The position numbers and the translations under genes were made by a program. DNA of 64,000 bases from Dictyostelium discoideum (taxonomy: Eukaryota). The stretch lies in the NCBI GenBank assembly GCA_000004695.1, contig CM000151.3, forward strand, positions 7,456,001 to 7,520,000. The letters run 5' to 3'. The notes under the pieces were generated by a model. That model was not told the origin of the DNA and ran no database searches. It saw nothing but the letters and a program-made list of their open reading frames with translations. Within the stretch, counting starts at the first letter, position 1. Each line of letters opens with the position of its first letter. This document shows, one piece after another, positions 52,473-59,562 of the stretch.

Positions 52473-52847
52473 TTATTTATTTAAAAAAGAACCATCATCA
52501 TCTTCATCAAATTTATTAACAGAGTCAAAGTTATGTAAGTATCTTCTCCATACTTTGATTTGTCCATCAAAACTACGTTTACTAATTAAATATTTAATTT
52601 TTTTATATTAGTATTGCAATTTTTAAAGAAAAAAAAAAAAAATGAAGAAACAAGAAAATTAAAAAGGATACCTACCTGCAATTTTGGTAGATATTAGGAA
52701 CATTTACAATATCAATATCTTTTAAATGCTTTTGGTGAATAAGAAAATTTTGGTAACCCTCAGTATTCATTCCATAGGTTATTTGTTTTTTTCTTTGTTC
52801 TAATCTTTGTTGAAAATCTTCATGAGTTAAGTTTTTTCCTATTTGCA
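52473..52847 (-). CDS. SLBP: SLBP-like protein (histone stem-loop-binding-protein RNA-binding domain), 3' part only: exons 52847..52676 and 52581..52473; 5' exons not found
   Basis: QRLEQRKKQITYGMNTEGYQNFLIHQKHLKDIDIVNVPNIYQNCS|KRSFDGQIKVWRRYLHNFD parallels the human SLBP RBD as I recall it ([62 protein letters not shown]). Minus-strand GTAGGT at 52675-52670 and acceptor ttaattAG at 52583-2 give phase 2+1 = AGT. The upstream acceptor at 52849-8 is phase 1 and the in-frame upstream stretch has no ATG, so at least one 5' exon is missing from the model. Confidence 0.65.
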
Positions 52848-53310
52848 CTTTTTCAAAAAAAAAAAAAAAAAAAATTTAATATTTTATATATACATATGTT
52901 TTTAAAAAAAAAAAAAATACAAACTCTTTTTTTCTCTATGCTTATCTATATTGAATATTATAGAATGAAAAGAAGAAAAAAAAAATTATCATAAATAAAA
53001 AAAAAAATTAAAAAAAATAATAATGAAACATTATTTAAAGACTGACACCTTTCCAAGAAATAAATTTATTTCATTTGAAAAAAAAAAGTAAAAAATAAAA
53101 AATAAAAGAAAAATAAATAAAAAAATAAAAAACAAAAAATAAAAAAATAAAAATATTGGAGAATGTGTGAGCCTTCGGTAAAATATATAATAATATCAAT
53201 CAATATGGGTTAATAATATTATTTTTTTTTTTTTTTTTTTTTTTTTTTTTTTTTTTTTTTTTTTTTTTTTTTTTTGAATTTATTTTATTGTTTTTTTTTT
53301 TTTTTTTATT

Positions 53311-54238
53311 TTAACAACAACCACTTTTCTTTTCTTGATGAGTTGAAGTTGTATTTGCAGTTAATTGAGGAGCAGGATCAGAGAGGGGTGTTAATTTTTT
53401 ACCTTGATTTGGTACTAACCAATTTTGAGTATCATCGACAACCATTGGTTTCTTTGAACTAACCAAATGGTAAATATCGGTGAGTAATCTTTCAAAGGAT
53501 TGATTTACATTTGTAGAATTTAAAGCAGAAGTTTCCAAGAATGAAATTTTATTTGATTCAGCAAATGCTTGTGCTTCTTTTGTTGGTACTTCTCTGCTCA
53601 TTTCGAGATCGGATTTATTACCGACCATCATGATTAAAATATCTTGTTCTGCCATCTCTCTTAATTCGTTCAACCATCTTGTAACATTTTTAAAACTAAT
53701 CTTTGATGTAATATCATAAACAATCATTGCACCAACTGCTCCTCTATAATATCCAGATGTAACTGCTCTAAATCTTTCTTGACCTGCAGTATCCCAACAT
53801 TGGGCTGTTATAGTTTTATTATCAATCTCTATACTCTTTGTTCCAAAATCTACACCAATTGTTGCTTTAGTTTTCTCTGTAAATTCATTTCTAGTAAATC
53901 TATTTAATAAATTTGATTTACCAACTGCTGAATCACCTATAATTACAACTAGTATAATTTCATTTAATTAGAATAAATATTCTTTTATTATTATTATTAT
54001 TATTATTATTATTATTATTATTATTATTATTATTATTATTATTATTATTATTATTTATTATTTGTTATTATTATTATTATTATTATTATTATTATTATTA
54101 TTATTATTATTATTATTATTATTATTATTATTATTATTATTATTATTATTATTATTATTATTATTATTATAATTATTGTTATTATAATTATAAAAATGTA
54201 CTTTTAAAAAGATATTCTGCTTCTTCTTCTTGTGGCAT
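53311..54238 (-). CDS. RAB11: Rab11-family small GTPase, 224 aa, 2 exons: 54238..54202 and 53948..53311
   Basis: Exon 1 [12 protein letters not shown] ends phase 1 before GTACAT at 54201. The 253-nt intron is almost entirely (ATT)n. Acceptor atactAG at 53950-49 supplies TT (codon ATT). Then [78 protein letters not shown]...GNKSDL...ETSAL...SGCC*. P-loop, switch regions, NKxD, SAL and a C-terminal CC prenylation site are all present. Closest to the Rab11 pattern ([30 protein letters not shown]). Confidence 0.9.
53986..54170. repeat. (ATT)n microsatellite, about 60 units with one short interruption, filling intron 1 of the Rab11 gene
   Basis: Direct reading. Confidence 0.9.
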
Positions 54239-55198
54239 TTTTATATGGATATATATAATAAATAAATATTTATATGTGTGATGTTGTTAAATATCAAAAA
54301 AATATGTGTTAATGTTTTAAAAATTTTTTTTTTTTTGGTTTTTTTTATTTTTTTTTTTAAAAAAAATAATTTTATTTTTTAATATTTTTTTTATTTGAAA
54401 AAAATAAAATTTAGAAATCAAAAAAAACAAAAATAGATATTATATAATTTGATTATAAAAAAAAAAAAAATAATAATAAAAAAAGATGTAATATATTGGA
54501 TTTTTTTTAAAAAAAAATTAAAAAAAAAAAAAAAAAATAAAAATTTAAAAGAGAAAAATATTTTAAAAAAAAAAAAAAAAACTTGCAGTTGTGTCGCATG
54601 CGAGGTTTATAATTTTATTTATTTTTTATTTTTATTTTTTTTTTATTATTTTTTTTTTTTTTTCTGAAAATGTGATCCGGGTTAAAAAGCCACCCAGTAA
54701 TCGGGCGTCATATAACAATACCAATAATTTTTTTTATTTTTTTTTTTTATTTGTTTATTTGGAAGTGTTTTTTAACACTACTTTTATTTTGTTTTTTTTT
54801 TCATTTTATTTTTTTTTTTTTTTTTTATTTTTTTATTTTTTTTAATTTTTAGTCAAAAAATAGATATATTTTTTTAAAAATTTTTTCTTATAACAATTGA
54901 GTAATTAGTTACTAGTATTTGAGTTTTTTTTTTAAAAAAAAATTAATGTTTTTTTCTTTTCTTTTTTTTTTTTTTTTTTTTTTTTTATCGATAATTAATT
55001 AATTAATAAATGGAATGTTTTTTTTTATTCTTTTTTTTTTTTAATTTTCTATCATGGTAATTGAGTTAGCCATTTCCTCAGTAATCGAGTTGTTTAATTT
55101 TTGTTTTTAATTTTTTTTTTTTTTTTGATTTTTTTTTTCTCGGATTTAAAAAAAATTTCATGATTTGATCACAAAAAAAAAAAAAAAAAAAAAAAAAA

Positions 55199-58100: not shown

Positions 58101-58640
58101 CCTGTTAATCTTACTCAAAACTCTTTATCCACTACTTTTAATGATGGATTTTATCATTTCACTCATTGTCCTGGCTCACCCTATGAATGTAGTAATAATG
58201 GTAAATGTAATTATTTAACTGGTCTTTGTGATTGTAATCATGGTTATCAAATTAAATCTGATTGTTCTGTTTCAACCACTATAGTATCTTCAACAACAAC
58301 AACTTCAACAACTTCAACATCTACAGTATCAACAACATCCTCACAAACTGGATCCCCTTCCACTACTAGTACTTCCTCAAATCAAAACACTGCCACTACA
58401 AGTAGTAGTACTAGTAGTAGTAGTAGTACACCTTCTCCTATCACCACAACCTCTACTACAAGTAGTAGCAGTACACCCAAACCCACCACTTCAACATCTA
58501 TTAGTGGTAATGATCCATCATCCTCATCCAACAGTGGTGTTGGTACTGACCCTGATAATACTTTATCTTCTTCCAATAGCTATAAATCAAATTTAATTTT
58601 AATTATCTTTACTCTATTTTTTGTTTCAATATTATTTTAA
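55199..58640 (+). CDS. Large cell-surface glycoprotein: signal peptide, N-terminal beta-rich domain, EGF-like module, about 8 IPT/TIG-like repeats, C-terminal EGF-like module, Ser/Thr-rich mucin stalk, C-terminal hydrophobic GPI/TM signal; about 1118 aa, 2 exons: 55199..55788 and 55874..58640
   Basis: GTAAGT at 55789 (exon 1 ends CT, phase 2) and acceptor aattatAG at 55872-3; exon 2 supplies A (codon CTA). EGF-like CKNDCGGSSNGECVNLKCICEEGFGLDDC and CPGSPYECSNNGKCNYLTGLCDCNHGYQIKSDC. TIG-like units of the form SxxPxxGxxxITIxGxxF. Ser/Thr/Pro stalk at 58250..58560. Terminal LILIIFTLFFVSILF. Confidence 0.75.
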
Positions 58641-59235
58641 AAAAAAAAAAAAAAAAAAAAAAAAAAAAAAGATTAAAATTTAGTTATTTTTGGTAACATT
58701 AAATCATTTTAAAAAAAAAAAAAAAAAAAATCATTATTAGTTTCAGTTTTTTTTTCAATAATATTTTAAAAAAAAAAAAAAAAAAATTAATAAAACAATA
58801 TAAATTTAAATTAACAAAAAAATAAAAAAAATAAAAAAAAATAATAAAAAATGAGAAATAAAAATTTTGTCATAAATAAAAACTAAATTTTAATCTTTTT
58901 TTTTTTTTTTTTTTTTTTTTATTTTTCAAATTTAAAAATAGAAAAAAAAAAAAAGAAAAATTTCTGAGAATTAAAAAAAAAAAATTTGAAATAAGCTACT
59001 TTTTTAAAAAATTTATGTGGAGTTTTTTTGTTTTTTGGATTTTTGTATTTTCTCACCGTTTTTTTTTTTTTTTATGACAAAATTTTTTTTTTTTTTTTTT
59101 ATTTAAAACTTTTTTTTTTTTTTTTTTTTTTTCAATTAATTTATTATTTTTATAAAAAACAAAACTTTTTTTTTTATTACATCAATCCTCAATTTTTTTC
59201 AAATCAAATATAAATATATACATATATAATCAACA

Positions 59236-59562
59236 ATGAGTTCAGCACAATCAAGAGGTGGTAAGACAGGTGGTAAAGTTGGTGGTAAAGTTGGTGCCAA
59301 ACGTCATAAGAAAACTCAAAAGGAACACATCAATGGTATTACTAAGCCAGCCATCCGTCGTTTAGCTCGTAGAGGTGGTGTCAAGCGTATCTCTTTCCCA
59401 ATCTATGAAGAAACTAGAAATGTATTACGTACCTTCTTAACCAATGTTATTCGTGATTCCGTTGCCTACACTGAACATGCTGGTCGTCGTACTGTTACTG
59501 CTATGGATGTTGTATATGCTCTCAAGAGACAAGGTAGAACTTTATATGGTTTTAACTCTTAA
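59236..59562 (+). CDS. Histone H4, divergent variant, 108 aa
   Basis: Histone-fold core ...[85 protein letters not shown] matches canonical H4 closely. The N-terminal tail [21 protein letters not shown] is non-canonical and there is a 2-residue NS extension. No histone 3' stem-loop follows the stop; an A-run follows instead. Confidence 0.9.

Follow-up and report, generated by a model that had tools for sequence, protein, structure and literature searches.

Does the histone stem-loop binding protein (SLBP) encoded in the genome of Dictyostelium discoideum have a histone stem-loop to bind, and is such an element carried by the histone H4 gene that lies a few kilobases from it? This question is raised by a stretch of 64,000 nucleotides of D. 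discoideum DNA (GenBank assembly GCA_000004695.1, contig CM000151.3, positions 7,456,001 to 7,520,000), hereafter the window, whose own numbering is used throughout. An earlier reading of this DNA, made from its letters alone (the sequence-only reading), had recognized an SLBP-type RNA-binding domain (RBD) on the minus strand at 52473..52847 and, 6.5 kb away, an H4 gene without a histone-type hairpin, which left the SLBP-like protein with a diverged stem-loop, non-histone targets, or other histone genes as its possible ligands. Here, we report that this H4 gene is followed by a hairpin, that the same hairpin recurs after histone genes across dictyostelids, and that the SLBP gene can be modeled as a conserved three-exon unit. 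On this basis, the window very probably contains two parts of a conserved histone-mRNA 3′-end system, namely an SLBP of 93 amino acids (aa) reduced to little more than its RBD and an H4 gene endowed with the cognate stem-loop.

The hairpin downstream of the H4 gene

The H4 gene and the elements that follow it are arranged as follows.

59236..59562, plus strand: histone H4 coding sequence, 108 aa, identical to H4_DICDI
59563..59725, plus strand: H4 3′ untranslated region (UTR) from the stop codon to the stem-loop, 163 nt, with genomic A-tracts and no AATAAA
59726..59741, plus strand: histone 3′ stem-loop GGUGUU-UUUU-AACACC (GGTGTTTTTTAACACC), with a 6-bp stem and a 4-nt loop
59742..59759, plus strand: conserved 3′ flank AACACAAAAAAACAAAAC, with a candidate cleavage site and the candidate downstream element ACAAAAAAACAA
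59895..59900 and 59906..59911, plus strand: AATAAA hexamers, the first after the stem-loop and possible alternative poly(A) signals

The 3′ flank of H4 indeed opens with long A-tracts, as had been described, and it is beyond these tracts, 163 nt past the stop codon, that the hairpin lies, in the context caa GGTGTT TTTT AACACC aacacaaaaaaacaaaac, with an A-rich 5′ flank and an AC-rich 3′ flank. This hairpin is the minimum free energy structure (-7.5 kcal/mol, ensemble frequency 0.78), and a permissive scan of 401 nt aligned it end to end with the Rfam family RF00032 (Histone3), at 21.9 bits (E=1e-3). It is the only GG...CC hairpin with a 6-bp stem and a 4-nt loop in the 64 kb of the window, for which composition-matched shuffles predict 0.26 such hairpins, or 0.02 when the closing pair must also be U-A and loop positions 1 and 3 must be U. 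The H4 gene is therefore not devoid of a histone-type hairpin, and the fact that GGTGTTTTTTAACACC is unlike the literal metazoan string GGCYCTTYTNAGRGCC is probably why it had been overlooked; what is found at 59726..59741 is, in substance, the stem-loop beyond the poly-A tract that the sequence-only reading had itself named beforehand as evidence that would count against it.

From a comparative perspective, the identical 16-mer is present on the sense strand at 10 out of 10 H4 loci of the D. discoideum group (five assemblies with two loci each), 56-57 nt after the stop codon in one H4 paralogue and 150-168 nt after it in the paralogue to which the gene of the window belongs. The longest non-homopolymer string common to the 3′ flanks of both paralogues is AAGGTGTTTTTTAACACCA, and ACAAAAAAACAAAA occurs 2-3 nt later. 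Both H4 genes of D. purpureum are followed by GGTGTT-TTT(T/C)-AACACC, the H4 gene of Acytostelium subglobosum by GGTGTT-TCTT-AACACC in a GC-richer context, and two H4 genes of Tieghemostelium lacteum by GGTATT-(5 nt)-AATACC, a compensatory change from G-C to A-U, with the loops UCUUC and UUUUA. The element is also shared with another histone family, since the H2AX genes of D. cf. discoideum and D. firmibasis carry GGTTTT-TTTC-AAAACC accacaaaaaaacaa 203-220 nt after their stop codon, and those of Cavenderia fasciculata and Heterostelium album carry GGCTTT-TTTC-AAAGCC ACCCA, which is almost canonical. Overall, the hairpin was found on the sense strand after 16 dictyostelid H4 loci, that of the window included, and after four H2AX loci. 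Against RF00032, the H4b paralogue scores 31.6 bits, the two D. purpureum H4 copies 35.2 and 31.5, and the H2AX copies 35.6 (D. cf. discoideum), 33.7 (D. firmibasis), 37.7 (C. fasciculata), and 37.7 (H. album), so that four copies (35.2, 35.6, 37.7, and 37.7) lie at or above the gathering score of 34.

The variation between copies also bears the mark of a structured RNA. In an alignment of 15 hairpin copies, all 90 stem cells pair, with changes on both sides at pair 3 (U-A/C-G) and pair 4 (G-C/U-A), to which T. lacteum adds a further A-U type at stem position 4; the observed covariation or pairing was reached by none of 500 shuffles. The two basal G-C pairs and the U-A closing pair are invariant in 15 of the 15 copies, every 4-nt loop is UUUU, UUUC, or UCUU, with U at positions 1 and 3, and the flanks read CAA or AAA on the 5′ side and AACAC, AUAC, ACCAC, or ACCCA on the 3′ side. 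Given this conservation and covariation on both H4 and H2AX, the hairpin is a genuine histone 3′ stem-loop. The stem of the window has U-A, G-C, and U-A at pairs 3-5, with a purine-pyrimidine pair at position 4, and hence falls outside the pyrimidine-purine pattern of the metazoan consensus GGYYYU, to which the dictyostelid H2AX stems (GGCUUU, GGUUUU) conform; GGYYYU is a lineage consensus, not a binding determinant.

Beyond dictyostelids, the identical 19-mer AAGGTGTTTTTTAACACCA was recovered on three metagenome contigs of 39-49% GC, at a distance of 50-160 nt from an H4 gene and from two genes of H2A.X type whose products end in SQDY, and this stem-loop variant is thus also used by other eukaryotes. 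Of the 30 metagenome matches of the 19-mer, 27 lack a neighboring histone gene and were set aside as chance occurrences. The sites near H4 or H2A.X-type genes are the following.

L029:329-347
L038:39-57 and 1245-1263 (minus strand)
L040:2628-2646 (minus strand)

As for the protein encoded upstream of the hairpin, the coding sequence and its N-terminal tail are as the sequence-only reading had quoted them, but the 2-aa extension that it ascribed to this tail does not withstand comparison, and the H4 that it called non-canonical is simply the standard one of the species. The tail is 5 residues longer than that of human H4 (R23 aligns with human R18), the protein matches the H4 of D. discoideum AX4 residue for residue (H4_DICDI; EAL68777.1 and EAL68933.1 for the two genes), and each of five Dictyostelium assemblies has two loci for this exact protein. 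A (GGKV)n-type tail is moreover common to related dictyostelids. The H4 of the window is the only H4 protein of the species, and not a variant H4.

Two observations on the H4 loci can be added. Both loci adjoin a paralogue of a CRT-like/SLC35F transporter (59236..62000 in the window for the H4 and transporter pair) in D. purpureum as well as in all five assemblies of the D. discoideum group, and these H4-transporter pairs, whose copies are ~170 kb apart, point to an old segmental duplication. In T. lacteum (L024/L025), the two H4 genes are divergent and ~500 bp apart, and encode an H4 of 103 aa with a shorter, more canonical tail.

A small SLBP gene on the minus strand

The SLBP gene was modeled on the minus strand, and is listed below in the direction of transcription.

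53030..53060, minus strand: conserved block TTTCTTGGAAAGGTGTCAGTCTTTAAATAAT upstream of the SLBP gene, a single exact match in the window
52925..52925, minus strand: last base of exon 1, the A of a predicted split start codon, A^GTTTGT...AG^TG (^ marks the splice junctions)
52848..52924, minus strand: intron 1, 77 nt, GT..AG
52676..52847, minus strand: exon 2, with the TG of the ATG, codons 2-57, and two bases of codon 58
52582..52675, minus strand: intron 2, 94 nt, GTAGGT..TTAG
52473..52581, minus strand: exon 3, with SKRSFDGQIKVWRRYLHNFD, a 16-aa acidic tail, and the stop codon

The assignment of this gene to the SLBP family, already made by the sequence-only reading, is borne out by profile, sequence, and fold comparisons. 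The Pfam profile PF15247 (SLBP_RNA_bind) matches the protein at 76.1 bits (cut-off 27, E=2.1e-21) over positions 3-69 of its 70, and the only sequence matches in the PDB are the RBDs of Drosophila and human SLBP (E=3e-11 and 1e-8), with which the SKRS, WRR, and LH motifs align. The AlphaFold2 (AF2) model of the 93-aa protein (predicted local distance difference test, pLDDT, of 83) has helices at residues 9-27, 30-41, and 59-74, and superposes on the structures 4QOZ, 4L8R, 4TUX, and 4TUW with target-normalized template modeling (TM) scores of 0.64-0.77 and root-mean-square deviations of 1.8-3.4 Å. Foldseek gave these same four structures a probability of 1.00 and returned nothing else credible, the modest E-values (2e-3 to 1e-2) being due to the small size of the domain. 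Exon 2 is predicted to encode helices A and B and the VPNI loop (its peptide includes EDFQQRLEQRKKQITYGMNTEGYQNFLIHQKHLKDIDIVNVPNIYQNC), and SKRSFDGQIKVWRRYLHNFD of exon 3, in which R60 is located, to form helix C.

The start of this gene is unusual, as exon 2 contains no in-frame ATG and the frame that continues upstream from it contains stops but no ATG. An A^GT(A/T)TGT donor and an AG^TG acceptor 77-89 nt further on are kept in the window and in the three related assemblies L014, L011, and L016, an arrangement by which an ATG is rebuilt across intron 1. We infer that the start codon is split by this intron, which would give a product of 93 aa here and orthologues of 91, 89, and 89 aa in L014, L011, and L016, respectively; the two-intron gene with its split ATG is intact in all four genomes. 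Across the four orthologues (dS ~0.8-1.6), the ratio of nonsynonymous to synonymous substitution rates (dN/dS) is 0.13-0.20 for the whole protein and 0.04-0.07 for the RBD, and the gene is therefore under purifying selection. Upstream, the block TTTCTTGGAAAGGTGTCAGTCTTTAAATAAT, composed of the TATA-like TTTAAATAA followed by a T-rich run, is conserved at the orthologous position in L014, L011, and L016 amid AT-rich DNA that diverges, and is a putative core promoter of the SLBP gene. With this TATA-like block at 53030..53060 and a Rab gene that ends at 53311, there is no space for more SLBP coding exons. The predicted protein is essentially an RBD, preceded by 12 residues and followed by a 16-residue acidic tail, whose FDEDDDGS is not kept in L011 and L016. 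With regard to splicing, intron 2 is of the GT-AG type in the window and L014, and of the GC-AG type (donor GCAAGT) in L011:3491..3581 and L016:3309..3400, on the minus strand of both.

Within the domain, every family-invariant SLBP residue is present. In particular, the SKRSF motif aligns with human SRRSW, which makes R60 the equivalent of Arg181, an arginine found in 41 of 42 aligned homologues (the Dictyostelium protein and 41 of its nearest homologues). The sole base-specific contacts between SLBP and its RNA are those of Arg181 with the second G of the stem, G7 (PMC10388802). The determinants of recognition are matched on both sides, as the protein keeps R60 when the dictyostelid stem-loops keep the second G, the U-A closing pair, and U1 and U3 of the loop; in the proposed pairing, the 93-aa SLBP would bind the histone stem-loop RNA (GGUGUUUUUUAACACC) specifically. 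Among the ligands that the sequence-only reading had envisaged, the diverged stem-loop comes closest, with the qualification that it is located on this very H4 as well as on its paralogue and on H2AX, so that no non-histone target needs to be invoked.

Other features of metazoan SLBP are missing. The alignment agrees with the earlier report of VPNIYQNCS in place of the metazoan TPNK: the motif reads VPNI in the protein of the window and in all three orthologues. Phosphorylation of Thr171 of TPNK increases the affinity of SLBP 7-11 fold (PMC10388802), and with a valine in all four orthologues such a tuning of affinity is impossible at that site. The threonine is present in 30 of the 42 aligned SLBPs and is replaced by I, V, K, or E in the 12 others, the Dictyostelium protein included, which indicates that this threonine, although common and of metazoan type, is not universal. 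As the 93-aa protein has no N-terminal domain, the metazoan modules for translation activation and cell-cycle degradation are absent, and the metazoan C-terminal processing region is likewise not present.

3′-end formation, competing explanations, and gene neighborhood

In animals, the histone downstream element sits 10-25 nt 3′ of the stem-loop, and the ACCCA-type flank holds the cleavage site. The string ACAAAAAAACAA, which occurs once in the window, at 59745..59756, is also found 2-3 nt after the stem in H4b and H2AX of the D. discoideum group, and is as such a candidate histone downstream element. Separately, a purine-rich run (CAAAGA(A)U or GGAAAUC) is observed 10-25 nt 3′ of the stem-loop in dictyostelids outside group 4 and in metagenome contigs, at the sites below; the D. 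discoideum-group string at this position is ACAAAAAAACAA(AA).

L023:2909-2930
L024/L025
L060:2598-2625
L061:2562-2580
L038
L040

These signals allow a sequence of events to be proposed. The H4 transcript would fold into the 6-bp/UUUU hairpin, whose 5′ flank, stem, and loop would be clamped by SLBP, with R60 reading the second G of the stem, and the resulting complex would control how the 3′ ends of H4 and other histone mRNAs are formed and/or how stable and how well translated these mRNAs are. Cleavage would most likely take place a few nucleotides 3′ of the stem, aided by ACAAAAAAACAA, and the AAUAAA located ~155 nt beyond the stem-loop, if used, would yield a polyadenylated alternative. Going one step further, the protein may represent a natural minimal SLBP, reduced to its RBD, devoid of the TPNK threonine, encoded by a split-ATG gene, and acting with the lineage-specific, A-rich ACAAAAAAACAA of H4a, H4b, and H2AX; this more specific proposal we hold tentatively, at a little short of an even balance.

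Several lines of evidence have to be set against the view that the window pairs an SLBP with a cognate stem-loop. The H4 hairpin, at 21.9 bits, is below the RF00032 gathering score of 34, and a scan of the whole window at the gathering threshold reported a tRNA only; its stem positions 3-5 deviate from the metazoan GGYYYU consensus; in the H4 neighborhoods of L018, L020, and D. purpureum, no SLBP was found; and the 93-aa SLBP, or any protein sharing its 5-mers, is absent from a collection of 15 billion proteins. The first two of these, together with the ~0.26 GG/CC hairpins expected per window by chance, would suit the idea that H4 has no functional stem-loop, the hairpin at 59726 being a chance inverted repeat and the SLBP-like protein serving non-histone targets. 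This we regard as next to impossible, because the same hairpin follows, on the sense strand, 15 other H4 loci in eight dictyostelid assemblies, four H2AX genes, and the histone genes of three metagenome contigs, because all hairpin cells pair, with compensatory changes and four copies above the Rfam threshold, and because the hairpin is the sole conserved non-homopolymer block between the 3′ flanks of the H4 paralogues. The absence of the protein from databases could alternatively mean that this SLBP-like stretch is a relic, in decay or not expressed: a word-indexed protein search and an exact look-up of the 93-aa model gave no match, an exhaustive HMMER search returned distant SLBPs alone (at most 56% identity), with no annotated dictyostelid orthologue among them, no gene is called at this site in three related assemblies, no conventional ATG is found within its exons, and the gene is not at the syntenic site in L020 and D. 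purpureum. Such decay is nevertheless very unlikely for a sequence whose frame is open, whose splice sites and split ATG are conserved in four genomes, whose RBD evolves at a dN/dS of 0.04-0.07 with all family-invariant residues kept, and whose upstream TATA-like block is conserved. The absence from the collection rather indicates that the gene is unannotated in the public proteomes searched, tiny genes with an intron-split start codon being presumably a typical blind spot of gene finders.

The more serious competitor concerns not the existence of the stem-loop and of its protein, but their role. If the stem-loop were never the terminus of the mRNA, poly(A) would be added at the downstream AAUAAA, and the hairpin with SLBP would act as an internal 3′-UTR element for stability or translation, without cleavage of the U7 type. 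An AATAAA never lies between the stop codon and the stem-loop, and lies 75-230 nt past the stem-loop at most dictyostelid loci; polyadenylated histone mRNAs with both signals are known from mouse to D. discoideum, as are poly(A)+ histone mRNAs in Physarum (PMC8600027); the mini-SLBP lacks most of the sequence beyond the RBD; and no U7 was detected in the window by the Rfam scan. Conversely, in three unlinked D. discoideum-group genes, ACAAAAAAACAA lies directly 3′ of the stem, at the place expected of a histone downstream element, a purine run of the CAAAGA(A) type occupies the same place in other dictyostelids, the ACCCA/ACCA-type 3′ flank is conserved, and Physarum, a fellow amoebozoan, has Lsm10 and Lsm11 (PMC8600027). 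It is because the ACC(C)A-like flank, ACAAAAAAACAA, and the CAAAGA(A)-type run are conserved that we favor a stem-loop-directed formation of the 3′ end; given the downstream AATAAA and the reported dual-signal mRNAs, polyadenylated transcripts with an internal stem-loop remain a serious alternative, toward which we lean less although it is far from negligible, or the two forms may coexist.

A last question is whether the proximity of SLBP and H4 is functional, for instance as a co-regulated cluster of histone metabolism. The neighbors of the two genes, and the only Rfam hit of the window scan, are as follows; the first three are identified through the Pfam labels of their orthologues in L011-L020.

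49297..51900, minus strand: Rad21/Rec8-type cohesin subunit
53311..54230, minus strand: Rab-family GTPase
55199..58640, plus strand: large secreted or membrane protein with faint TIG/EGF-like Pfam matches and a Ser/Thr-rich tail
17728..17801, plus strand: tRNA gene (Rfam RF00005, 57.9 bits)

The order Rad21, SLBP, Rab, TIG/EGF gene, H4 is shared by the window, L011, L014, and L016, and the closeness of SLBP and H4 noted by the sequence-only reading is thereby reproduced in three related assemblies; it does not extend to the two others or to D. purpureum, as the Rab, TIG/EGF, and H4 neighborhood is devoid of SLBP in L020 (D. firmibasis) and D. purpureum and is rearranged in L018. Moreover, two unrelated genes intervene, SLBP and H4 lie on opposite strands, the second H4 locus is never accompanied by SLBP, and the Rad21/Rec8, Rab, and TIG/EGF neighbors have no evident tie to histone metabolism. 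A functional cluster is accordingly hardly credible, and the 6.4 kb between SLBP and H4 are a matter of incidental, lineage-specific synteny.

The surrounding DNA (12-32% GC per 2 kb, with short, AT-rich introns) contains two further elements. At 54764..54779 on the plus strand, AGTGTTTTTTAACACT pairs perfectly into a 6-bp/UUUU hairpin, with A-U for G-C at the base of the stem as its sole difference from the H4 stem-loop; considered as a second site or a U7-like gene, it has no RF00032 or U7 signal, is intergenic (between the Rab and TIG/EGF genes), is represented by AGTGTTTTTTAACATT in L014 and by nothing in more distant relatives, and is probably a chance occurrence. At 54665..54725 on the plus strand, amid AT-only intergenic DNA, lies the GC-rich island CTGAAAATGTGATCCGGGTTAAAAAGCCACCCAGTAATCGGGCGTCATATAACAATACCAATAA, which is identical in L014; a motif search of L011, L016, L020, and D. 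purpureum did not recover it, and it has no Rfam match. It could correspond to a promoter element or to a gene for a small RNA.

Relation to known SLBP systems and significance

SLBP and histone stem-loops were reportedly described in Dictyostelium and other protists by Davila Lopez and Samuelsson in 2008 (RNA 14:1). A D. discoideum SLBP homologue, dictyBase DDB0169192, was listed in the preceding year (Marz et al. 2007; PMC5054213), and a statement in PMC8600027 that draws on Davila Lopez and Samuelsson (2008) has the histone mRNAs of D. discoideum carrying both stem-loop and poly(A) signals. The Dictyostelium system of SLBP and histone stem-loop has thus been known since 2007-2008, and what is added here consists of coordinates, a model of the mini-gene, the covariation across H4 and H2AX, and a candidate downstream element.

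Compared with the metazoan system, the Dictyostelium protein shares with human (4L8R, 4QOZ) and Drosophila (4TUX, 4TUW) SLBP the three-helix RBD fold, here predicted, as well as the equivalent of Arg181 and the YG.NT, WRR, and LH motifs. Unlike its metazoan counterparts, it is only 93 aa long, has no N-terminal region for translation activation and degradation, and carries a valine for the TPNK threonine. Similarly, the hairpin resembles the metazoan RNA of RF00032 by its 6-bp stem, its two basal G-C pairs, its U-A closing pair, its U-rich loop of 4 nt, its A-rich 5′ and AC-rich 3′ flanks, and its position in a histone 3′ UTR, when its pairs 3-5 are U-A, G-C, and U-A instead of three Y-R pairs and when it stands 163 nt from the stop codon, behind genomic A-tracts. 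Closer to Dictyostelium, the amoebozoan Physarum polycephalum likewise combines SLBP RBD proteins, histone stem-loops, and poly(A) signals: most of its histone genes, those for variants among them, are followed by a stem-loop as well as by poly(A) signals, and Lsm10 and Lsm11 have been identified (PMC8600027). However, its two SLBPs, PpSLBP1 and PpSLBP2, are large proteins of 470 and 316 aa with long N-terminal regions (PMC8600027), in contrast with the single RBD-only protein of the Dictyostelium window. In size, the latter is closer to short RBD-only SLBPs from metagenomes and transcriptomes (for example P0124, 105 aa; P0127, 110 aa; P0151, 100 aa; P0163, 91 aa), with which it shares a protist-type P[ND]..Q.CSKRS[WF]DGQ motif, and several of which also lack the TPNK threonine (RIPD, REPD, RVPNK); they reach at most 38-56% identity with the protein of the window, and there may be truncated predictions among them.

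The significance of these results lies mainly in a correction: the apparent paradox of an SLBP deprived of its stem-loop vanishes, as H4, its paralogue, and H2AX all bear the cognate hairpin, and the early, pre-metazoan origin of the histone 3′-end system was already backed by the existing literature. In practical terms, an explicit model becomes available for a tiny SLBP gene that is apparently missing from public proteomes, and the candidate downstream element (ACAAAAAAACAA/ACAAAAAAACAAAA) could guide the search for a U7-like RNA in Dictyostelium. The TPNK threonine appears to be dispensable in many protist SLBPs. If the Dictyostelium protein were indeed a natural minimal SLBP, the RNA clamp alone would be the ancestral and sufficient core of SLBP, and the coupling of this system to the cell cycle would have to come by other means.

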